A stretch of DNA of 64,000 nt from Sphingomonadales bacterium (lineage in GTDB: Bacteria > Pseudomonadota > Alphaproteobacteria > Sphingomonadales > Sphingomonadaceae). A program made the position numbers and the translations under genes. The stretch spans positions 532 to 64,531 of the forward strand of contig JBBRPI010000017.1 in NCBI GenBank assembly GCA_038228305.1. Reading direction: 5' to 3'. The notes under the pieces were generated by a model. The model saw nothing but the letters and a program-made list of their open reading frames with translations, had not been told where the DNA came from and searched no databases. Positions 1,057 to 48,568 of this stretch are shown one piece after another. Each line of letters opens with the position of its first letter. Within the stretch, counting starts at the first letter, position 1.

Positions 1057-3630
1057 TTAGACCGTCAGCGCCAGCCGCCCATCGCCTTCATCCACGTGCA
1101 CCGTGCAGCCGTCGGGGACTTCGCCCTTCAGGATCAGTTCGGCGAGCGGATCCTGCAGATGTTTCTGCACGGTGCGTTTCAGCGGCCGCGCGCCGTAAAC
1201 CGGATCATAGCCGACCCGCGCCAGCCAGCGCCGGGCGGCGTCGGTCAGGTCCAATGTGACCTTGCGATCGACCAGCAAAGTCTGGACGCGGGCAACCTGC
1301 AGATCAACGATTGGCGCCATCGCCGATTCGCCCAGCCGCTGGAACAGGATGATTTCATCCAGCCGATTGAGGAATTCCGGCCGGAAATGCCCGCGGACAA
1401 TCTCCATCACCTGCGCCTCGGCCTCGGCGACCGGCTGATCATCGCGCAGTGCGGCGATATATTGGCTGCCCAGGTTTGACGTCAGGATGATCAGCGTGTT
1501 GGTGAAATCCACTGTGCGGCCCTGGCCATCGGTAAGCCGGCCATCGTCGAGCACCTGCAACAACACGTTGAACACATCCGGATGGGCCTTTTCCACCTCA
1601 TCGAACAGCACGACCTGGTACGGTCGGCGCCGAACGGCCTCGGTCAGCACGCCGCCTTCTTCATAGCCGACATAGCCGGGAGGCGCGCCGATCAGGCGGG
1701 CAACGCTGTGTTTTTCCATGAATTCACTCATGTCCAACCGCACCATGGCGCGCGGATCATCGAACAGGAAATTCGCCAGCGCCTTGGTCAATTCGGTTTT
1801 GCCAACACCCGTCGGCCCCAGGAACAGGAAACTGCCGAGCGGGCGATTGGGGTCTTGCAGCCCGGCCCTCGCCCGCCGCACGGCCGACGATACGGCATGC
1901 ACGGCGGCCGGTTGGCCGATCACCTGCGCTGACAATATGTCTTCCATTTTCAGCAGTTTGTCGCGTTCACCCTCCAGCATCCGGTCGACCGGAATGCCGG
2001 TCCAGCGTGACACCACCGCAGCAATGTCATCGGCGGTGACTTCCTCACGCGTCATCGCATTGGCGGTGGCCACCTCGGCGTCGGCCAGGGCGCGTTCCAG
2101 TTCGGGAATCCGGCCATAGGTCAGCTCGCCCGCCTTGGCGAAATCACCGCTGCGCTGCGCCTGGTCAACCTCCAGCCGCGCCGTGTCGAGCTGTTCCTTG
2201 ATTTTGGTGGCGGCGGCAAGCTTGTCCTTTTCGCCCTGCCAGCGCAGCGTCAGCGCCCCGGATTGTTCCTCCAGGTCGGCCAATTCGGTGCGCAAGGCGG
2301 TCAGCCGGTCCTTTGACGCCGCATCGGTTTCGCGTTCCAATGCGCCGGCCTCGATCTTCAACTGGATGATGCGGCGATCGAGGTTTTCGATCTCCTCGGG
2401 TTTTGATTCGACCTCCATGCGCAGCCGCGATGCCGCTTCGTCCATCAGATCAATCGCCTTGTCGGGCATGAAGCGATCCGAAATATAGCGGTTGGACAGG
2501 GTGGCCGCGGCGACAATCGCGCCATCGGTGATGCGCACGCCGTGGTGCAGTTCGTATTTTTCCTTCAGGCCGCGCAGAATCGAAATCGTGTCCTCAACGC
2601 TTGGCTCGCCGACCATCACCGGCTGGAATCGGCGTTCCAGCGCCGCGTCCTTTTCGACATATTTGCGATATTCGTTCAACGTCGTCGCGCCGATGCAATG
2701 CAGCTCGCCGCGTGCCAGCGCCGGTTTGAGCAGGTTCGATGCATCCATAGACCCTTCCGAAGCGCCGGCCCCGACAAGCGTGTGCATTTCATCGATAAAC
2801 AGCACGACGTCGGAGCCTTCGGCGCGGACTTCATCGAGCACGCCCTTCAGCCGTTCTTCAAATTCGCCGCGATATTTGGCGCCGGCGATCAACGCGCCCA
2901 TATCCAGCGACATCAGGCGCTTGTCCTTCAGGCCATCGGGCACGTCGCCATTGGCAATGCGCAGCGCCAGCCCTTCGACGACCGCCGTCTTGCCAACGCC
3001 GGGTTCACCGATCAGTACCGGGTTGTTCTTGGTGCGGCGCGCGAGCACCTGGATCGTGCGGCGGATTTCTTCATCGCGACCGATGACCGGATCCAGCTTG
3101 CCATCCCGCGCCGCCTGGGTCAGATCGCGGGCATATTTGTTCAGCGCGTCAAACTGCGCCTCGGCCCCGGCGCTGTCGGCGCTGCGGCCCTTGCGGGTGG
3201 TTTCGATTGTGGTGTTCAGCGCCTGCGCCGTCACCCCGGCCTTGGCCAGCGCCTTGCCGGCCTCGGTCGTCGTCGCCAGGGTCAGCGCGACGAGCAGGCG
3301 TTCGACGGTGACGAACGAATCCTTGGCCTTGGCGGCAATCGCTTCGGCATTGTCGAGCACCCGCACCGTGTCATTGTCCCAGGCCAGCGACTGCGCGCCC
3401 GCACCGGACACCTGGGCGATCTTGGCCAGCGCCTGATCGGTCAATTGCGTCGCGGTCGCCGGGTTGCCGCCAGAGGCACGAATCAGGTTCGCCGCCATCC
3501 CCTCCTCATCCTCCAGCAGAGCCTTCAACACATGTTCGGGCGCAACGCGTTGATGGTTATTGCGGATGGCAACCGTCTGCGCCGATTGCAGAAATCCCTT
3601 GGCGCGATCGGTGAATTTTTCGAGGTTCAT
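1057..3630 (-). CDS. clpB: ATP-dependent chaperone ClpB
   Basis: MNLEKFT start; two AAA+ modules ([16 protein letters not shown]); [13 protein letters not shown]; coiled-coil middle domain; GARPLKR. Confidence 0.98.
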
Positions 3631-3653
3631 GCGGGCATCTCCTGTGCCGCTCG

Positions 3654-3681
3654 ATATGGTGTGGTAATCGGGCAACACAAG
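3654..3681 (-). promoter_or_regulatory. Putative RpoH (sigma32) promoter of clpB
   Basis: The minus strand reads CTTG-N18-CCATAT about 25 nt upstream of the clpB ATG, resembling alphaproteobacterial heat-shock promoters. Confidence 0.6.
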
Positions 3682-3806
3682 GGGGACGGCGCAGGAAAGC
3701 GCCTTCGGCGGCGGGGCCGTTGCGCCGGGTGGCAGGCTGCGTGGCCCTGCACTGTCTGGCGCGCAACGCGGCGGCGCCGGCCAAAGCCAATTCTTGGCCC
3801 GGTCCG

Positions 3807-4169
3807 TTACACCGGCTCCATCAGTTCGATACGATTGCCGAACGGGTCGTTGACGTAACAGCGATGATAGCCTGAAAGTGGCTCGTCCCCGACGATTTGA
3901 TAACCAGCGCCTGCCAGCCGGGCAATCAGTTCGGGAAGGCCGCTGACCGTCAGCGCGAGATGGGCCTTTTTCGCAGGCCGAAAATCATGGTCCACGCCAA
4001 GATGTATTTTCAAAGCATCGCGCTCAAACCAGCAGCCGCCCCGTGTCGCAAGGTTCGGCGGCTTTGCAACTTCGGGAATGCCCAGCACATTAGTGAAAAA
4101 GGCGCGCGCCGCCGCCTCACCACCGGCGGGCATCGCGAGCTGAACATGGTTCAAAGCCTCTATGCGCAT
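3807..4169 (-). CDS. VOC/glyoxalase family protein
   Basis: LNHVQLAMP...FFTNVLG...GGCWF...IHLG...HLAL...YVNDPFGNRIEL motifs. Confidence 0.9.
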   Translation of the reverse strand: MRIEALNHVQLAMPAGGEAAARAFFTNVLGIPEVAKPPNLATRGGCWFERDALKIHLGVDHDFRPAKKAHLALTVSGLPELIARLAGAGYQIVGDEPLSGYHRCYVNDPFGNRIELMEPV

Positions 4170-4267
4170 GTTGCGGAGCGTAACGCCAATTGATGATCCG
4201 GGCGACCATTATTGGTCAGCCCCGCCTCTTTTGCCTGCTGCAGGGTGAATTTAGGCCACATCCTGAC

Positions 4268-4351
4268 GATAATACCTTATCGGGCATCAAAAAGGCCGCT
4301 GGTGGCTCTGGTGTTTCGAGCAGGAGTCGGCATCAACGAGAGTTGAGATAA
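4268..4351 (-). repeat. Dispersed 84-nt intergenic element, copy 1
   Basis: Its reverse complement aligns without gaps to 25981-26064 at 64/84 identity (counted by hand). Confidence 0.8.
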
Positions 4352-4363
4352 CAGGCGCTGACC

Positions 4364-5575
4364 CTAACGCGGCTGCGGCACCGGTGCTGCCGCCCCCGGC
4401 TTGCGCACAATCCCCGCCAGCACCGTGTTGATCAGCTTTGCATTGTCCCATTCCGGTGTCCGCGGCGGGCTGTCGCCGGTGCGCAGCACGATCAATTTCT
4501 GCGATGGCACGATGTAAACAATCTGGTCGGAATTTCCGTCAAACATCACCACATCATCAGCCAGATAGGGTTCGGAATGCAGCACTTTCGGCAATGGCCG
4601 GCCAGGGTTGGCAAAGCCGCGCCGTTCGATGTATTGGCCGCCAATCCACAGCCCAAGGCCATAATGCGGGTTTTGCGCGGTGGGGGTTTTCATCGCGGCA
4701 ACATACCCGACGGGCAACAGGCGTTTCCCGGCCCAGATGCCGTCGTTGATGACCAGCATCGCCATCCTGGCATAGGTTTGCGCCGGCAACAGCGCGCAGC
4801 AGCCGCTGTGCGCCAGGCCGCCGGGGCGATTGTTCCACACCTGCCCGCCGGCAGCGCCAATCGGTTTCAGCACTTCGCTGCCGATGAATTCGGCATAGCG
4901 CCGCCCGGTGGCGCGTTCGATGACCAGCGCCACCAGTTCGGCAGTGGCATTGTTATATTCGTAAATGCTGCCGGGCGCATCGGTCAGCGGGTAATCGTCG
5001 ATGATGATGCGGTCGTGATAGGGGTGAAGATAGGCACGGCTCCACGGGTTTTGCGGATCGGCGGAATTGCCCTGTGCGAGCAGCCCGGATCGCATGTCGA
5101 GCAAATGGCGGACCAGGATGGCGCCCTTGGGCTGCCCGCGCAGTTCGGCGATGAAATCGCTGATCGGTTGGTCGAGTGACTTGATCTTGCCCAGTTTTAT
5201 CGCCCGGCCGATGGCCAGCGCGGTGATCGGTTTGGCCAGCGATTTCGAAACGATCAGCGTCGCCGCATCGGCGCCACCGAAATAGCGTTCGGTCTGCACC
5301 TCGCCATTATGGATGACGATGAAGGCGCTGGATTTGTTGGCGGCGGCATAGGCGGCGGCGGCATCGAGTGCAGCCGCCGTTATGCTGGGGGTAGCGGCCA
5401 CGGGCAGCGGCTTGAAGGCGGCGCCAGCGACCGTTTCCAGCGGATCATAACGGCTCAATTCGCCTTTGCCGCTGGTCGCTATGTCCTGAAACCGGGTGAG
5501 ATACACTGCCTCGACTTCGGGTGGATAGGTCGCGGCCATCAGCAGCGGGGCCAGCAACAACAGCAAGCGGCGCAT
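4364..5575 (-). CDS. Secreted serine hydrolase, class C beta-lactamase-like family
   Basis: Signal peptide MRRLLLLLAPLLMAA; SxxK (SLAK) and YxN (YNN) motifs; YGLGLW. The ORF-track extension to 6154 is judged spurious. Confidence 0.88.
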   Translation of the reverse strand: MRRLLLLLAPLLMAATYPPEVEAVYLTRFQDIATSGKGELSRYDPLETVAGAAFKPLPVAATPSITAAALDAAAAYAAANKSSAFIVIHNGEVQTERYFGGADAATLIVSKSLAKPITALAIGRAIKLGKIKSLDQPISDFIAELRGQPKGAILVRHLLDMRSGLLAQGNSADPQNPWSRAYLHPYHDRIIIDDYPLTDAPGSIYEYNNATAELVALVIERATGRRYAEFIGSEVLKPIGAAGGQVWNNRPGGLAHSGCCALLPAQTYARMAMLVINDGIWAGKRLLPVGYVAAMKTPTAQNPHYGLGLWIGGQYIERRGFANPGRPLPKVLHSEPYLADDVVMFDGNSDQIVYIVPSQKLIVLRTGDSPPRTPEWDNAKLINTVLAGIVRKPGAAAPVPQPR

Positions 5576-13492: not shown

Positions 13493-15919
<2,427 letters not shown>

Positions 15920-15922
15920 GTG

Positions 15923-15959
15923 CCCCGGCGGCTGGGGCCTTAGGCCCCAGCCGCCGGGG
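15923..15959. terminator. Perfect 18-bp inverted repeat between convergent gyrB and TBDR
   Basis: CCCCGGCGGCTGGGGCCT-T-AGGCCCCAGCCGCCGGGG; no U-tract on either side. Confidence 0.7.
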
Positions 15960-21622: not shown

Positions 21623-22300
21623 ATGCCGTCTGATACCGTTCTTGCCTTAACTGGCCTTGCCAAGTCCGTTCCCGGCGGCCGTGTGCTGTTTTCCGGGCTG
21701 AATCTCGCCGTCGCTCCCGGTGAAATCATCGCCATCATGGGTGAATCCGGGGTGGGCAAATCGACCCTGCTCAATTTGATCGCCGGGCTGGACAGCGCCG
21801 ATGCAGGCGACATCCATATTGCCGGCAATGATCTGGGCCAATTGAACGATGATGCCCGCACGTTGCTTCGGCTCCGCCATATCGGTTTTGTCTTTCAGGC
21901 GTTCCACATCCTTCCGCATTTGACGCTGGCCCAGAATGTCGCGCTGCCGCTCGCGCTCGCCGGCAGCGACGCTGGCGCTACGCTGGCCGCTGCAGGCGCA
22001 ATGCTGGCCAATGTCGGGTTACCGGATCGCGACACAGATTTCCCATCCCAACTGTCTGGCGGCGAATTGCAACGTATCGCCATCGCCCGGGCATTGGTTC
22101 ATGCCCCGGCTCTGATTTTGGCCGATGAACCCACCGGCAATCTGGACCCCGAAACCGCCGCCCGAATCCTGACGCTGTTGACGGCGCAAATCCGTGCGTC
22201 GGGCGCCGCTGCGATTATCGTCACCCACAGCGACCGCGCCGCTGCCATTGCCGATCGCGTGCTGGTGTTGGGTCGGGATGGGCTGGTGGCGCGTGAGTGA
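21623..22300 (+). CDS. ABC transporter ATP-binding protein (LolD/AttE-like)
   Basis: GESGVGKST, LSGGELQRIAIARAL, ILADEPTGNLD, IIVTHS. Confidence 0.93.
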   Translation: MPSDTVLALTGLAKSVPGGRVLFSGLNLAVAPGEIIAIMGESGVGKSTLLNLIAGLDSADAGDIHIAGNDLGQLNDDARTLLRLRHIGFVFQAFHILPHLTLAQNVALPLALAGSDAGATLAAAGAMLANVGLPDRDTDFPSQLSGGELQRIAIARALVHAPALILADEPTGNLDPETAARILTLLTAQIRASGAAAIIVTHSDRAAAIADRVLVLGRDGLVARE

Positions 22301-22372
22301 AGTGCCTCCGGCGGCTGGAGCCTTGTGCGCCAGACCCTATTTTGCCGAGACTGAACCCAGAACACCGATCTG

Positions 22373-24922
22373 GTGCGCAGGGCCCCAGTCGCCGGAGGCA
22401 CTTTGATCGCCCTCACCCCCGCCCGCTGGCTGCTCATCGGCGAATGGCGCGCGCATCCCGGTCGGCTGATCATCGCGGTGCTGGCGATTGCAGTTGGCGT
22501 CGCGTTGGGATTTGCCGTGCATCTGGTCAACCAGACTGCGCTGGACAGTTTCGGAAGGGCGCTGCGCAGTGTAAACGGCGGTGCCGATCTGCAGGTTCAT
22601 GCGGCGACTGCGACCGGATTTGATGAAGGTCTGTACCCGCAGATTGCCGGTGTCGCCGGAGTCGCGTCGACCAGCCCGGTGATCGAACTGGCCGCAAGCA
22701 GTGGCACGATCGCCCCGCCCGGTACCCGTTCCAACGGGGGATCGCGTTTTACCTTGTTGGGGCTCGATCTGTTGCGGGCTGCTGTCGTCACCCCGGGCCT
22801 GTTGCCGTCCGCTGCCCCCGGCGTTGACAGCGTTTTCCTGTCCGGCCCGGCGTTGATCGCGCTCAATCGCCACATTGGTCAAAGGCTGACGATCGACGCC
22901 GCCGGGCGCAGTCACACCTTTACAATTTCAGGTACAATTCCCGGGGCTGATGACACAGCGCTGGCGATAATCGATATTGCCGATGCGCAGTGGCGGTTCG
23001 GCCAATTGGGCCGGTTGCAACGGCTGGATTTGCGGCTCGCGCCCGGTGCGGATCCTGCCGTGGTCAGCACCGCGCTGGCGGCAATCCTGCCTGTGGGCGG
23101 CAGCATCGAAACGCCGGCCAGCGCGGCGGGACGCACGGACAGCCTATCTCGCGCCTATCGCGTCAATCTGGAAATGTTGGCGATGGTGGCGCTGCTGACT
23201 GGCGGTTTCCTGGTCTATTCGGCGCAATCGCTCGCCGTTGCCCGCCGCGCGCCGCATTTTGCACTGCTGCGTGTTCTGGGGCTAAAGGCAAGTGCTCTGA
23301 CCGGGCAGGTCGTTGCCGAGGGTGCACTGCTTGGGGTTGCCGGCGCTGCATTTGGTCTGGCGCTGGGCTATGGCCTTGCCGTGCTCACGTTGCGATTACT
23401 GGGCGGCGATCTGGGCAGTGGGATGCTGCGCGATGCCGCACCAGAACTGCATTTTTCGCTTCCCGCCGCGATTGCCTTTGGCGGCATCGGCATCGTCGTA
23501 GCCATGGCGAGCAGCCTGGTTCCGGCCCGCGCCGCCGCCCGTGCTCGGCCGGCAATCACGCTGAAATCCAGCGACAATGCTGGCGATCAACGGCCCGATG
23601 CCCAGCTTGGCGTCACCGTGATCATCATTGGCGGCATTGCTGCGCTTGGGCCGCCGCTATGGGGCCTGCCGCTGCTTGGTTACGCCGCGATGGCGCTGCT
23701 GCTTGCCGGTGGTATCGCCATCATGCCGTGGGTTGCGCGTGCCTTGCTCGGTCTTGTGCCTGCCCGCCGCCTTGCGCCGCCGCTGGACCTCGCGCTCAAA
23801 CGTCTGAGGGGCGCCCCTGGCCAGGCCGCGGTGGCGCTGTGCGGCATTGTCGCCTCGACGGCGTTGATGGTGGCGATGGCGGTGATGGTCACGAGTTTTC
23901 GCGGTTCGGTTGATTCCTGGCTGACGCAGATTCTGCCGTCCGACATTTATCTGCACCTGGAAGGCGCAGACGCTGGTGGGCTGGATGCGGCGGCGCAAGC
24001 CCGGCTGGCCGCAACACCGGGCATCGTATCGATGCGCTTTGTCCGCCAGATGCCGCTGCGGCTGGCCGCGGATAAACCACCGGTGCTGCTGTCCGGCCAA
24101 CCCATCGATGCCGGCAACCCGGCAGCCCATCTGGCGATGATCGGTGGAACCGTGGCGGTTCCAGTGGGGGCAACCCCGGTCTGGGTTTCCGAACCCATGG
24201 GTTGGCTATACGGCTTGAAACCCGGCGACCAGATCAGCCTGCCGCTGGGCGGCGCCGCGCGGCCAGTTTTCGTTGCCGGCGTCTGGCGCGATTATGCCCG
24301 GCAATTTGGCGCGATTGCGATGCGTGATACCGATCTGGCGCGTTTGACCGGCGATGCCACCAAAACCGAGGCAGCCATCGATGTTGCGCCGAGAGCCGAT
24401 ATTCCCCGCAGCATCGCCGCGTTGCGCCAGCGCCTGCCAGTTGCGGTCGCAGGGCAGGCGATGTTTGGCCAGCCACGCCAGATGCGAGCCATGGCGCTAA
24501 CAATTTTTGACCGCAGTTTTGCCATCACATATGCCCTGGAGGCGATCGCCATCATTATCGGCTTGATTGGAATCGCCGCAACATTTTCGGCGCAGGTTCT
24601 GGCACGGACGCGGGAATTCGGAATGCTGCGCCACATCGGCGTGACACGGCGGCAGATCATGACGATGCTGGCTGCTGAAGGCGCATTGCTCGGCACTGTC
24701 GGCAGTATTGCCGGAATTACTTTGGGCGTGGTGATGAGCCAGGTGCTGATCGACGTCATCAACCCGCAGAGTTTCCACTGGACAATGGACACCAGCTTGC
24801 CGTGGGGCCTGCTCGGACTGCTGGCGGTCGCCCTCGTCGCGGCAGCGGCTGGCACTGCGGTGCTAGCAGGTCGGCAAGCAGTGTCGGCGCATGCCGTGCG
24901 CGCGGTAAGGGATGATTGGTAA
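22373..24922 (+). CDS. FtsX-like ABC permease (AttF/G-like, two MacB/FtsX units)
   Basis: Two periplasmic + TM repeats; FALLRVLG and REFGMLRHIG motifs. Start codon uncertain. Confidence 0.9.
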   Translation: MRRAPVAGGTLIALTPARWLLIGEWRAHPGRLIIAVLAIAVGVALGFAVHLVNQTALDSFGRALRSVNGGADLQVHAATATGFDEGLYPQIAGVAGVASTSPVIELAASSGTIAPPGTRSNGGSRFTLLGLDLLRAAVVTPGLLPSAAPGVDSVFLSGPALIALNRHIGQRLTIDAAGRSHTFTISGTIPGADDTALAIIDIADAQWRFGQLGRLQRLDLRLAPGADPAVVSTALAAILPVGGSIETPASAAGRTDSLSRAYRVNLEMLAMVALLTGGFLVYSAQSLAVARRAPHFALLRVLGLKASALTGQVVAEGALLGVAGAAFGLALGYGLAVLTLRLLGGDLGSGMLRDAAPELHFSLPAAIAFGGIGIVVAMASSLVPARAAARARPAITLKSSDNAGDQRPDAQLGVTVIIIGGIAALGPPLWGLPLLGYAAMALLLAGGIAIMPWVARALLGLVPARRLAPPLDLALKRLRGAPGQAAVALCGIVASTALMVAMAVMVTSFRGSVDSWLTQILPSDIYLHLEGADAGGLDAAAQARLAATPGIVSMRFVRQMPLRLAADKPPVLLSGQPIDAGNPAAHLAMIGGTVAVPVGATPVWVSEPMGWLYGLKPGDQISLPLGGAARPVFVAGVWRDYARQFGAIAMRDTDLARLTGDATKTEAAIDVAPRADIPRSIAALRQRLPVAVAGQAMFGQPRQMRAMALTIFDRSFAITYALEAIAIIIGLIGIAATFSAQVLARTREFGMLRHIGVTRRQIMTMLAAEGALLGTVGSIAGITLGVVMSQVLIDVINPQSFHWTMDTSLPWGLLGLLAVALVAAAAGTAVLAGRQAVSAHAVRAVRDDW

Positions 24923-25956
24923 TGCGCTGGCTGGTCTGTTTGTTGCTGCTGGGTGCGGCGCCCATCGATTACCCGTCTGTTCGCCCTGGCACGCCGATCA
25001 TCTTTCCCCGCGATCACGGCGCCCATCCCGATTTTCGCACCGAATGGTGGTATGTCACCGGCTGGCTGACGACCGCCGAGGGCCAGCAACGTGGTTTTCA
25101 GTTGACGTTTTTTCGAACCCGGCCGGCGGTGAATGACGCCAACCCAAGCAAGTTCACCCCGCGCCAGATAATGTTTGCCCATGCCGCGATTGCCGCGCCC
25201 AAAGCCGGCCATTTGGTCCATGACCAACGCATTTCCCGCGCGGGCTTTGGCCTTGCGGATGCGAGAGTCGGTGACATGGCGGTCAAGGTCGATGACTGGA
25301 CACTGGTGCGCAGACCCGACGGCATTTTCCGCGCTCGCGTCACCGCCAGCAGCTTTGACCTCAACATTGCGTTGACGCCGACCCAGCCACCTTTGCTGCA
25401 AGGCCGCGCTGGGTACAGCCAGAAAGGCCCCGATCCTCGCGAAGCCAGCCATTATTACAGCATACCCCAGCTTCGCGTCTCCGGCACGCTGGATGCCCAG
25501 CCCGTCACCGGCACCGCCTGGATGGATCGCGAATGGTCATCAACCTTGCTCAACCCGCGCGCCACTGGCTGGGATTGGCTGGGGCTGAACATGGACGACG
25601 GTGGCGCGTTGACGCTGTTTCGCGTTCGCGATGCCGCTGGCGCTGCTGTTTGGGCCGGCGGTTCCTATCGCGACAAAGATGGTGAAGTGACAATCCTGAA
25701 ACAGACCGATGTCCGATTTGCCGTCACGCGACGCTGGCGGTCGCCGCGAACAGGCGCCAGCTATCCGGTTGCCCCCACGGTCAGTTTCCTGCTGCGCGGC
25801 AAAAAATTGGAATTGCTGGTAAAACCTTTGTTTGACGACCAGGAACTTGACAGCCGGCGCGGTGGCGGCCCGGTGTATTGGGAGGGTGCTGTCACCGTGC
25901 CCGGCGGGCGGGGCTATCTTGAAATGACCGGCTATCAAAAACCGTTGAATATGTAG
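24922..25956 (+). CDS. AttH / carotenoid 1,2-hydratase-like lipocalin-fold protein
   Basis: FPRDHGAHPDFRTEWWYVTG, ASHYYSIP, WMDREWS, GWDWLG, YWEGAV, GYLEMTGY; 1-nt overlap with the permease stop. Confidence 0.92.
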   Translation: MRWLVCLLLLGAAPIDYPSVRPGTPIIFPRDHGAHPDFRTEWWYVTGWLTTAEGQQRGFQLTFFRTRPAVNDANPSKFTPRQIMFAHAAIAAPKAGHLVHDQRISRAGFGLADARVGDMAVKVDDWTLVRRPDGIFRARVTASSFDLNIALTPTQPPLLQGRAGYSQKGPDPREASHYYSIPQLRVSGTLDAQPVTGTAWMDREWSSTLLNPRATGWDWLGLNMDDGGALTLFRVRDAAGAAVWAGGSYRDKDGEVTILKQTDVRFAVTRRWRSPRTGASYPVAPTVSFLLRGKKLELLVKPLFDDQELDSRRGGGPVYWEGAVTVPGGRGYLEMTGYQKPLNM

Positions 25957-25980
25957 CCGTGATTTCCTGACACCGGCGAT

Positions 25981-26064
25981 TTATACCAACTCTTGTTGAT
26001 GCCGACTCATATTCAAGACAACAGAGCCGCCGACGGCCCTTTTGAACTCCGACAGGTTATGATC
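25981..26064 (+). repeat. Dispersed 84-nt intergenic element, copy 2
   Basis: 64/84 ungapped identity to the reverse complement of 4268-4351; the core CAACTCTYGTTGATGCCGACTC is 21/22 identical. Confidence 0.8.
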
Positions 26065-26424
26065 CGCAAGATGGGGTATCCGCAAAGGAAGCACCCAGAT
26101 TGAAACGTTAGCCCCGTCCATCGCCGCCTGTGCAAGCATTGTGGCATATCCCGCACCAAACGCCCGATGATTGCGGCCCGGCCCGCCAGTTCATAACGTC
26201 TGGCTATATTGCTGTCGGAGGTCGAAGTTCAGGGCCGCGCGCGCAAGGCGCCCAAGCCCGACGAGTTGTTTTTCGGGACGTTCCAAAGCCTGTTCAAGGT
26301 CAGGCTGTCCCCGCCGCTCGTCCTGTTCGGACAATACCACCCCGGAAAGCTTCCACGACGTCCTGGGGCTGTTGCCTGGCAGACGGGGAACAACTGAAAC
26401 GCCCTTGGGCAGGGATTGAGGCCT

Positions 26425-28601
<2,177 letters not shown>

Positions 28602-46931: not shown

Positions 46932-47008
46932 GCGCCCGTAGCTCAGCTGGATAGAGCATCAGACTACGAATCTGAGGGTCGGACGTTCGAATCGTTCCGG
47001 GCGCACCA
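46932..47008 (+). tRNA. tRNA-Arg(ACG)
   Basis: 77-nt cloverleaf: GCGCCCG acceptor stem, D arm AGCTGGATA, anticodon stem TCAGA-CTACGAA-TCTGA, TTCGAAT T loop, encoded CCA. Confidence 0.98.
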
Positions 47009-47049: not shown

Positions 47050-47594
47050 TTAGTGTCTGATCCAGAACTCCGCTGGACCGACTTTGGCTGTGTGCTTGCG
47101 GACGCCGGCTATGGGATGAGCGGCCGCTTCCGGCGGGCCATCGGCGACGCGCACGACAAGGACGGCCAGCATCTGCCCGGCGAGGCGGTCTGGGTTGTTG
47201 GCGAGCATCGCTCGACCGGCGAGCGCAAATACTACCTGTCCAACCTGCCCGCCGACACGCCGCTCAAGCAGCTGGCCGGTGCCATCAAGGCGCGTTGGGT
47301 CTGCGAGCAGGCGCATCAGCAATAAAAGGAAGAGCTCGGTCTCGACCATTGCGAGGGACGATTCTGGGCCGGGCTGCACCGACACGCTTTGATGTGCATG
47401 ATCGCACTGGCCTTCCTCCAGCCCCAGCGCCTCAAACAGGCGAGAGAGGGAAAAGCATCGCCGGGCCGCCGCCACAGCCGACGCTGCCGGCGATACGCCA
47501 GGCCATCCTCACCGCACTCGCAAGGCCGCCGCCTTCAAAGTGCCCGCACTGCCATAAACCGATACCGCCAAATGTTCTGCCAAAGTAGTGCTAG
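47050..47594 (+). mobile_element. Internally deleted IS701-family element (transposase pseudogene)
   Basis: ADAGYG, KYYLSNLP, RWVCEQAHQQ*KEELGLDH.EGR.W.GLHRH, then a frameshift to GPPPQPTLPAIR...CPHC; TAA at 47323; flanked by TTAG and CTAG. Confidence 0.9.
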
Positions 47595-48568
47595 TTCCCG
47601 ATCACCAGCACGGCAAAGCTGCCAGGCACCAACGGCGGCCGACCACCGCCGGCGGGCGCGGCGCCAAATGTTGCCGACGGCAGATACAGGTGTCCGGTCC
47701 GTTTATCGATCGCGATCGTTCGCGCGCTCACCTGCGTGCGCAATATCTGGATTATCTTTGCCTGCTTTCCGCCAAATGCGACTACCGCCAATGTCCCGTC
47801 GCGGCCGGCCGGGACAAAAGCCAGACTTCGGCCGGCATCATAGGCGACGCCGTCGGCGCCCTTGCCGGTCGGCAACACCTGAATGACCTTGCCGGTCGCG
47901 ACGTCGACGATGACCGATGTGCCGTCGCAAGCCGAAATCAATTGGCGGTCTGCGTTGACAAGGGCGATGCCCGTTGGCCCTTCACAACCCGCCAGCGGCC
48001 ATCGCGCGATGACCTGACGGCTGGGAATGTCGATAACAGCGATTTCGTTCTTGTCCTCCACATTCACATAGGCGCGATTACCAAGCACCGCTGCGGCCTC
48101 CATTTCGCCGCCAACGGTGATCGTTGCGACGACGGCATGTGTTCTGGGGTCGATCAGGGTCACGTCGCCACCAGCATGGTCCATCACCAGCACCAATCCC
48201 GATTTGGGATCATAGGTCGCAGCATCGGGACCTTTGCCGGTGGGCACTGTTGCCAACGTCTTGCCGGTCGCGGCGTCGGCAAAGACGGCGGTTTCGGTGC
48301 CGCCGTTGGTCACCAGAAGTTCGCCGGCGACCGGCAGCGCATCGTGCAGCCGAACCCCGGGGGCCAGGCCGGGCGTCACGGTTCGGGTCCCCAGATCGAT
48401 CGCCATCACCGAGCTGCCGCGCGCCACCAGCACCCGGTTGGCGCCGCCATCCACCCGGACATAATCCCAGCCGCCATCGGGACCGGGGATTCGGTCGACA
48501 ATCCGATAGGGCGGCGCGGCGGCAACTGGCAATGCCAGCAAGGCCGCCAGCAGAATGATGAACCGCAT
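47591..48568 (-). CDS. Secreted YncE/YVTN beta-propeller protein
   Basis: Signal peptide; GGWDYV, TGKGPDA..YD and TGKGADG..YD blade repeats; ARTIAID. Confidence 0.88.
   Translation of the reverse strand: MRFIILLAALLALPVAAAPPYRIVDRIPGPDGGWDYVRVDGGANRVLVARGSSVMAIDLGTRTVTPGLAPGVRLHDALPVAGELLVTNGGTETAVFADAATGKTLATVPTGKGPDAATYDPKSGLVLVMDHAGGDVTLIDPRTHAVVATITVGGEMEAAAVLGNRAYVNVEDKNEIAVIDIPSRQVIARWPLAGCEGPTGIALVNADRQLISACDGTSVIVDVATGKVIQVLPTGKGADGVAYDAGRSLAFVPAGRDGTLAVVAFGGKQAKIIQILRTQVSARTIAIDKRTGHLYLPSATFGAAPAGGGRPPLVPGSFAVLVIGN

Follow-up and report, generated by a model that had tools for sequence, protein, structure and literature searches.

A probable small, modular intergenic repeat family in an uncultured sphingomonad

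Introduction

Why do two unrelated genes of the same bacterium carry the same short stretch of DNA almost immediately behind their stop codons? The question arises from the window, by which we mean the whole 64,000-nucleotide stretch of sphingomonad DNA analysed here, in which an 84-nt segment behind one gene reappears behind another. The original prediction, made from the letters alone, left the segment unexplained and offered three leads, namely a structured or 3′-UTR-derived small RNA, an old MITE or insertion sequence end, and a recombination site. Here, we describe the anatomy, the further copies and the distribution of this element, and weigh the readings that they allow. The explanation that we favour, with moderate confidence, is a small, lineage-restricted, low-copy, non-coding and modular intergenic repeat family of the BIME/RIME/BOX kind.

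Results

A 96-nt repeat follows two unrelated genes

When recomputed, the ungapped alignment between the reverse complement of positions 4268–4351 and positions 25981–26064 returned the same 64/84 identity as first reported. The pairwise similarity reaches 96 nt, with 4256–4351 on the minus strand matching 25981–26076 on the plus strand at 75% identity (E = 2e-15 and 1.6e-12 in two blastn runs within the window), and a self-blastn of the window ranks this pair as the strongest repeat across the whole 64 kb. Elsewhere in the window, positions 47834–47914 and 48206–48286 form a direct repeat of ~83 nt with 71% identity, 372 nt apart; it lies within an ORF at 47591–48568 (−) and may be an internal protein repeat.

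Copy 1 (4256–4351, minus strand, 96 nt) is flanked by a beta-lactamase-family gene, which codes for a serine hydrolase, and by a glyoxalase/VOC gene that starts at 4169; clpB lies downstream of the copy. Copy 2 (25981–26079, plus strand, 96–99 nt) follows a CrtC-like lipocalin gene, and its right boundary at 26077–26079 is where the matching of the other copies ends. Downstream of it, positions 26080–26424 form a stretch of ~345 nt without a convincing ORF, Pfam match or Rfam match, up to the end of a convergent SDR gene (26425–27450), which is unusually long for a genome so compact. The offsets from the stop codons were confirmed, being 12 nt for copy 1 (from 4364, where the stop ends, to the first base of the element at 4351) and 24 nt for copy 2 (from 25956 to 25981), and both copies are indeed co-oriented with the upstream gene. 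The upstream genes also proved unrelated as stated, with Pfam assigning one to the Beta-lactamase family (PF00144) and the other to the CrtC/lipocalin families (PF07143 and PF17186). Post-stop, co-oriented placement in two cases is what is expected of any repeat that is tolerated only in intergenic DNA.

The element can be divided into three parts. Module A (~48 nt) includes a 22-nt core, the short GC-rich hairpin in the middle has a T-run behind it, and module B measures ~38 nt. Module A spans 4304–4351 (−) in copy 1 and 25981–26028 (+) in copy 2, with the core at 4324–4345 (−) and 25987–26008 (+), respectively. The core, CAACTCTYGTTGATGCCGACTC, differs by one base between the copies (21/22, as first noted) and occurs exactly twice in the window, whereas 100 shuffles yielded no match even when three mismatches were allowed. 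In copy 1, it consists of the mini-hairpin CAAC-TCTC-GTTG followed by ATGCCGACTC, which contains a GANTC site. Outside the core, identity is ~69%, and the core's excess conservation is not significant once the choice of this sub-window is allowed for. The central hairpin of copy 2 (26023–26040, +) reads AGAGCCG-CCGA-CGGCCCT and is followed by TTTTGA, and its counterpart in copy 1 (4292–4309, −) reads AGAGCCA-CCAG-CGGCCTT and is weakened, copy 1 being the more decayed of the two. Module B lies at 26041–26079 (+) in copy 2 (TTTGAACTCCGACAGGTTATGATCCGCAAGATGGGGTAT) and at 4256–4291 (−) in copy 1 (TTTGATGCCCGATAAGGTATTATCGTCAGGATGTGG).

The CAAC-N4-GTTG mini-hairpin and the GGCCYTTTTGA run singled out by the original prediction are both present in the two window copies. 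The ATG said to follow at a shared offset is likewise found in copies 1 and 2 (ATGTGG and ATGGGG, respectively), but a third copy, described below as record 2, reads AAGATATGG, with the ATG displaced by two bases, so that the one shared by copies 1 and 2 does not represent a start codon conserved in the family.

Further copies in the same genome combine the modules differently

Contigs of two sediment-metagenome runs (X1 and X2) were aligned to copy 2 at a likeness of at least 80%. In addition to the loci of the window, this brought up five contigs that carry part of the element between unrelated flanking sequences. In run X1, the depths of these contigs are 14.3, 13.8, 12.5, 11.1 and 15.5x, as against 13.2 and 15.7x for the contigs of the window, and in run X2, where four of the five were seen, the depths are 5.2, 2.9, 4.5 and 6.5x, as against 5.0 and 3.9x. 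Since their depth tracks that of the window's contigs in both samples, the additional contigs most likely belong to the same genome. The description of the element as present twice was thus an undercount, at least five further partial copies lying elsewhere, and the depths and alignments point to a repeat family with, most likely, at least seven loci in this genome.

The description of the five additional copies (records 2, 3, 4, 6 and 7) draws on their alignment coordinates, the number of mismatches, some individually listed differences and flanks of 30 nt. The 5′ part of the element, from 25981 to ~26028 and thus module A of copy 2, is common to records 2, 3 and 4, and the 3′ part, from ~26035 to 26079 with the central hairpin, is common to records 4, 6 and 7, with module B present in record 2 as well. 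Accordingly, the full order of module A, hairpin and module B is found in copies 1 and 2 and in record 4. In record 2, module A is joined directly to module B without the hairpin (...CAGAGCC|TGAGACAGGTTATCATGCGCAAGATATGGT), while in record 3 it is followed by a different GC-rich continuation. Records 6 and 7 carry, in place of module A, the REP-like arm GATGGGGTCTGGGCCTGTGGCCCC, which is followed by the hairpin and module B. Conserved motifs are therefore combined differently from locus to locus, as in mosaic repeats, and the two window copies, the ones with known context, are extragenic. Among the X1 and X2 contigs aligned to the element, no joints and no empty-site polymorphism were seen.

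The element appears private to one lineage

The sequence of the window was present in two runs of one sediment-metagenome study only, and no RNA run contained the locus. The best matches of its proteins are 73–82% identical and come from MAGs or genomes labelled Sandarakinorhabdus, Polymorphobacter or Sphingomonadales, and from these identities we conclude that the organism is an uncultured sphingomonad to which nothing in the searched collections is closely related. A core pattern with two free positions had no match in one genome each of 185,579 species (GTDB), none in 241 million JGI metagenome records and none in viral contigs. A degenerate module-B pattern returned one site in the JGI metagenomes, situated inside a coding region and about as expected by chance. 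In 300 kb of the nearest relatives' loci, an nhmmer profile found nothing credible, and both this search and a scan of the same 300 kb with up to five mismatches gave sub-threshold or in-gene matches only. The 96-nt family thus appears to be private to the lineage of the window.

The sites orthologous to the two copies do not offer a clean empty site, as the flanking proteins are 73–82% identical and the downstream gene order differs. Instead, the relatives carry REP-like inverted doublets there, behind the beta-lactamase-family gene in L002 (the site of copy 1) and behind the CrtC-like gene in L016–L019 (the site of copy 2). The presence of these doublets at the same post-stop sites indicates that the stretch behind those stop codons has repeatedly hosted small repeats in this clade. 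Contig L002 (NKIM01000071.1) is titled 'Burkholderiales bacterium PBB2', and its beta-lactamase-family protein is 82% identical to that of the window; its repeats and its clpB neighbourhood resemble those of Sphingomonadales relatives, and mis-binning of the contig, or a wrong label on the MAG, is a possibility.

The REP-like family to which these doublets belong occurs at several places, including positions 15923–15959 and ~22300–22405 of the window and the relatives' loci L002 and L016–L019. At 15923–15959, the window has a REP-like palindrome, a hairpin with a perfect 17-bp stem (CCCCGGCGGCTGGGGCC-TTA-GGCCCCAGCCGCCGGGG) that starts 3 nt past the TAA stop of an 804-aa ORF (13505–15919). The Logan contigs of run X1 terminate inside this hairpin, and one other contig (5767 bp, 15.5x) has a similar copy. 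At ~22300–22405, a decayed inverted doublet (TGCCTCCGGCGGCTGGAGCC...GGGCCCCAGTCGCCGGAGGCA) lies directly upstream of the ORF of an FtsX-type permease (22373–24922), overlapping its called start, and an intact doublet occupies the orthologous site in L016/L017 (7349–7450), between the ABC ATPase and permease genes. The REPIN-like inverted doublets behind the stop codons orthologous to those of the window lie at 2740–2880 in L002, 11055–11175 in L016/L017 and 3667–3787 in L018, and they are laid out as GCCTCCGGCGGCTGGGGCC-NNN-GGCCCCAGACCCCAT ... ATGGGGTCTGGGGCC-NNN-GGCCCCAGCCGCCGGAGGC.

The REPIN-type doublets of this neighbouring family look unlike the 96-nt element, which as a whole is not significantly self-complementary. 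When modules A and B were compared with the REP-like family (L002, L016 and the window sites at 15923 and 22300), local alignments scored no better than shuffles except for a GC stem of 12–16 nt. This is the central hairpin, whose stem differs very little from the outer stem of the REP-like units, e.g. GGCCGCCGGAGGCGC in L016, the likeness being confined to those 12–16 nt. With a consensus near GCCGCCGGCGGC, the hairpin would qualify as the kind of GC-rich imperfect palindrome (20–40 nt) that REP families repeat, but it makes up only ~18 of the 96 conserved nucleotides and is missing from one copy.

The central hairpin and the case for an RNA

Predicted RNA folding of the central hairpin gave −8.6 kcal/mol for copy 2 on the plus strand, which is the strand of the gene, and −12.1 kcal/mol on the minus strand; for copy 1, the corresponding values were −4.6 (forward) and −7.4 kcal/mol (reverse). 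Four other copies have a G at the position equivalent to 26033, which turns the centre into the perfect palindrome GCCGCCGGCGGC. In record 4, the hairpin reads AGCGCCGCCGGAGGCGCT and folds at about −13.7 kcal/mol, the A.C mismatch of copies 1 and 2 being replaced by a C-G pair (26025 A>C together with 26038 C>G), so that the stem is kept or improved. On the strand of the gene, a terminator scan made no call at copy 1 or copy 2; the hairpins that it did call are all on the opposite strand. Across the aligned copies, the hairpin is a real feature that most of them maintain, yet it is weak; in copy 1 it has decayed, and record 2 dispenses with it. Together with the T-run, it could plausibly serve as a weak transcription terminator or as a 3′-end stabilizer for the upstream gene.

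These features are also the basis of the main rival to the mosaic repeat, a family of small regulatory RNAs or 3′-UTR elements that would be made with, or processed from, the upstream mRNA and would end at the hairpin and U-run. In such an RNA, the 22-nt core would be the functional part, acting as a seed or binding a protein; we regard the RNA and this role of its core, taken jointly, as unlikely. The co-orientation of the window copies with the genes that end 12 and 24 nt before them would suit this explanation, as would the conservation of the hairpin with the TTTT(T)GA behind it, the contrast between the core (21/22) and the remainder (~69%), and the shift towards better pairing at one hairpin position in record 4. 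However, module B is conserved past the putative terminator, which a small RNA ending there leaves unexplained, and record 2 does without the hairpin altogether. The forward hairpin is weak in both window copies, terminators being called on the reverse strand only, and the fold of the entire element is unremarkable (z = −1.4 to −1.9). In addition, the copies share no conserved promoter, and the element was not found in related genera. The Rfam family that the original prediction had held out as an explanation did not materialize, since the search returned no match at E<=10 over 4100–4450 and, over 25940–26460, two sub-threshold chance matches that both fall outside the element. The sole Rfam match in the window at the gathering threshold is a tRNA at 46932–47005 (+; 66.2 bits), whose anticodon loop, CUACGAA, points to tRNA-Arg(ACG).

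Transposon ends, cassettes and other mobile elements

That the element is the relic of a transposon, either a MITE or a solo insertion sequence end (IS6/IS903-like, GGCTCTGKTG) that is now immobile, is improbable in our assessment and ranks behind the RNA family. As in a MITE, the copies are short (96–99 nt, against a MITE limit of 500 bp), non-coding, intergenic, found at no fewer than seven loci of matching depth and in various stages of decay. Copy 2 can, moreover, be folded back on itself into a long imperfect hairpin closed by ATACC...GGTAT, but this foldback is not significant by the shuffle test, and copy 1 does not fold in this way. Likewise, terminal inverted repeats are not apparent, as the alignment of either copy with its own reverse complement does not stand out from 500 shuffles (score of 8 versus 10.6±2.9 for copy 1, and 14 versus 11.0±2.6 for copy 2, with 87 of the 500 shuffles as good). 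Around copies 1 and 2, we saw no target-site duplication. The 30-nt flanks of record 3 both contain GACGCAG, but two flanks of 30 nt are expected to share a 7-mer by chance in ~3–4% of cases, and several flank pairs were inspected. A blastn search of 72,556 plasmids and 50,697 phage records likewise returned nothing for the element.

The specific resemblance to IS6/IS903-type ends fared no better. The motif in question, GGCTCTG(T/G)TG, is one arm of the central hairpin and is thus internal to the element, not terminal. As a decamer, it is not conserved, the GGCTCTGTTG of copy 2 being replaced by GGCTCTGGTG in copy 1 and by GGCGCTGTTG in record 4. Ends of the IS6 family, e.g. of IS6100 and IS26, have a conserved terminal inverted repeat of ~14 bp at the element boundary (GGCTCTGTTGCAAA for IS6100), and full copies carry a transposase gene. 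Of this repeat, only the first 10 nt are matched, and these by copy 2, while copy 1 and record 4 differ.

Mobility and transcription could also be combined in a duplicating '3′-end cassette' that lands co-oriented behind stop codons, supplies a terminator and releases 3′-UTR-derived small RNAs, in all of which the 22-nt core with its GANTC would act as seed or bind a protein; we give this version a low probability. Were it true, an uncultured lineage of Sphingomonadales, close to Sandarakinorhabdus and Polymorphobacter, would possess a new RNA family that is found nowhere else.

Several other candidates were rejected. An integron attC site would have RYYYAAC ... GTTRRRY core sites at its two ends and lie in a cassette array beside an integrase. 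On inspection, however, the ends read TCTCAAC/TACCAAC and GTATTAT/GTTATGA, and the copies, which are on opposite strands and separated by 21 kb, are surrounded by housekeeping genes, clpB being one of them. By inspection only, a TR/VR pair of a diversity-generating retroelement was dismissed because the mismatches are not adenine-specific, and an RP4-type oriT nic site because the ATCCTG-like motif is on the wrong side of the hairpin.

Regulatory sites and coding potential

A cis-acting DNA site, in which the CAAC-N4-GTTG dyad and the GANTC motif would act as an operator or as a methylation-sensitive promoter element of a small regulon, seems quite improbable. It would account for the core being the best conserved part, and it draws on the GANTC motif (the target of CcrM methylation) that the core contains at 4324–4328 and 26004–26008. 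This motif is under-represented in the window (113 observed versus 222±14 expected from shuffles), and the one in the core is the only GANTC within 3600–4500 and 25700–26500, i.e. in each of the two intergenic regions. On the reverse strand, copy 2 also reads TGAGTCG-N17-TATAAA, but the −10-like hexamer is not conserved in copy 1, and no sigma-70-like promoter was called in or beside either copy. By inspection only, none of the sigma-70, sigma-54, RpoH and EcfG promoter consensus sequences fits the element, nor do DnaA and IHF boxes. Moreover, copy 2 has no downstream gene on the same strand for 345 nt and nothing recognizable there, the flanking genes have nothing in common, and conservation over 96 nt far exceeds what an operator needs.

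A small protein gene or the fragment of a gene end is close to refuted, as the mismatches show no third-position bias in any of the six frames that has a start codon in both copies. Forward frame 2, encoding I(S/P)TLVDADS(C/Y)S(K/R)(H/Q)QS(H/R)(Q/R)RPF*, has 8 third-, 4 second- and 1 first-position mismatches over 20 codons and its stop at the same place in both copies, but a stop precedes it by five codons, and copy 2 offers no start codon in this frame. The other candidates, opposite-strand ORFs of 52–53 aa at 4190–4351 (+) and 25981–26139 (−), both end at the edge of the element; however, their mismatches are mostly at second positions (12/24), amino-acid identity is ~48% against 75% at the nucleotide level, and the N-terminal halves are unrelated. 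The hairpin-less copy would be frameshifted, the ORFs over the element have no Pfam match, and an exact look-up of five of them in a collection of 15 billion proteins found none.

Discussion

The element behind these two stop codons has several copies, is modular and non-coding, and is absent from all of the collections and relatives that were searched. What had been proposed in general terms, a repeated and possibly once-mobile non-coding element, agrees with its multiple copies and shuffled modules, while the specific leads attached to this proposal (an IS6/IS903 end, an Rfam RNA and terminal inverted repeats) found no confirmation.

The closest known systems are mosaic repeats. BIMEs (bacterial interspersed mosaic elements) of E. 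coli and RIMEs (Rhizobium-specific intergenic mosaic elements) of rhizobia join a GC-rich palindromic unit to conserved non-palindromic motifs in several combinations, often lie past gene ends and are restricted to narrow lineages. The 96-nt family resembles them in being short, non-coding and intergenic, with a GC palindrome and conserved flanking modules. BIMEs, however, exist in hundreds of copies, have as their backbone genuine REP units, to which IHF or gyrase binds, and are associated with a RAYT, whereas only ~7 copies were detected here, with a short palindrome (4–7 bp stem). More generally, classical REP, BIME and BOX families have tens to hundreds of members. Both BIMEs and RIMEs are mentioned in reviews (PMC3184786, PMC3116915).

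The BOX elements of Streptococcus pneumoniae are modular (boxA-boxB(n)-boxC), intergenic and non-coding, and their means of spread is unknown (PMC3049150). With them, the 96-nt family shares the layout of conserved terminal modules around an optional or variable middle module. BOX elements differ in numbering >100 per genome, in forming long stable foldbacks and in being transcribed, while the 96-nt element has no significant foldback over its whole length. The third comparison is with REPINs and RAYT-mobilized REP elements (PMC3116915, PMC3337134). The clade has REP-like palindromes and inverted doublets, the hairpin of the element is similar to the outer stem of these, and in records 6 and 7 a REP arm is joined directly to the hairpin and module B. 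Nevertheless, the 96-nt element is not an inverted REP pair, and its modules A and B have no REP similarity above shuffles. From MITEs and IS6 terminal repeats, which it recalls as a short, multi-copy, intergenic and decaying sequence, it is set apart by the lack of significant terminal inverted repeats, of visible target duplications at copies 1 and 2, and of plasmid or phage matches, as well as by the variation of its IS6-like decamer among copies.

If the mosaic repeat is the correct explanation, new copies would arise by duplication, transposition or recombination in trans, and the hairpin module may have been borrowed from, or be common to, the REP-like palindromes of the clade. Copies would survive only just outside genes, which would lead to their position right after stop codons, and they would decay after landing, as the weakened hairpin of copy 1 suggests. 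Three observations sit less comfortably with such a family, namely the low number of copies (only ~7 at a local identity of 80% or above), the restriction of the hairpin's likeness to the REP outer stem to 12–16 nt, and the near-perfect core. The last hints at a sequence constraint that a purely selfish or neutral repeat does not predict, a hint that lacks statistical significance after correction for the choice of sub-window.

A mosaic repeat of this kind would have little significance beyond annotation, where it extends the list of small repeat families confined to one lineage. Only a demonstration that the conserved 22-nt core functions as an RNA or DNA site would make it interesting. In practice, the family could be used as a marker for the binning and strain typing of this uncultured sediment sphingomonad, with the caution that Logan contigs end within the nearby REP-like hairpin at 15923–15959. 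Considering that relatives have REP doublets where the mosaic element is found here, the first few dozen bases behind a stop codon would be a preferred home for repeats in this clade.
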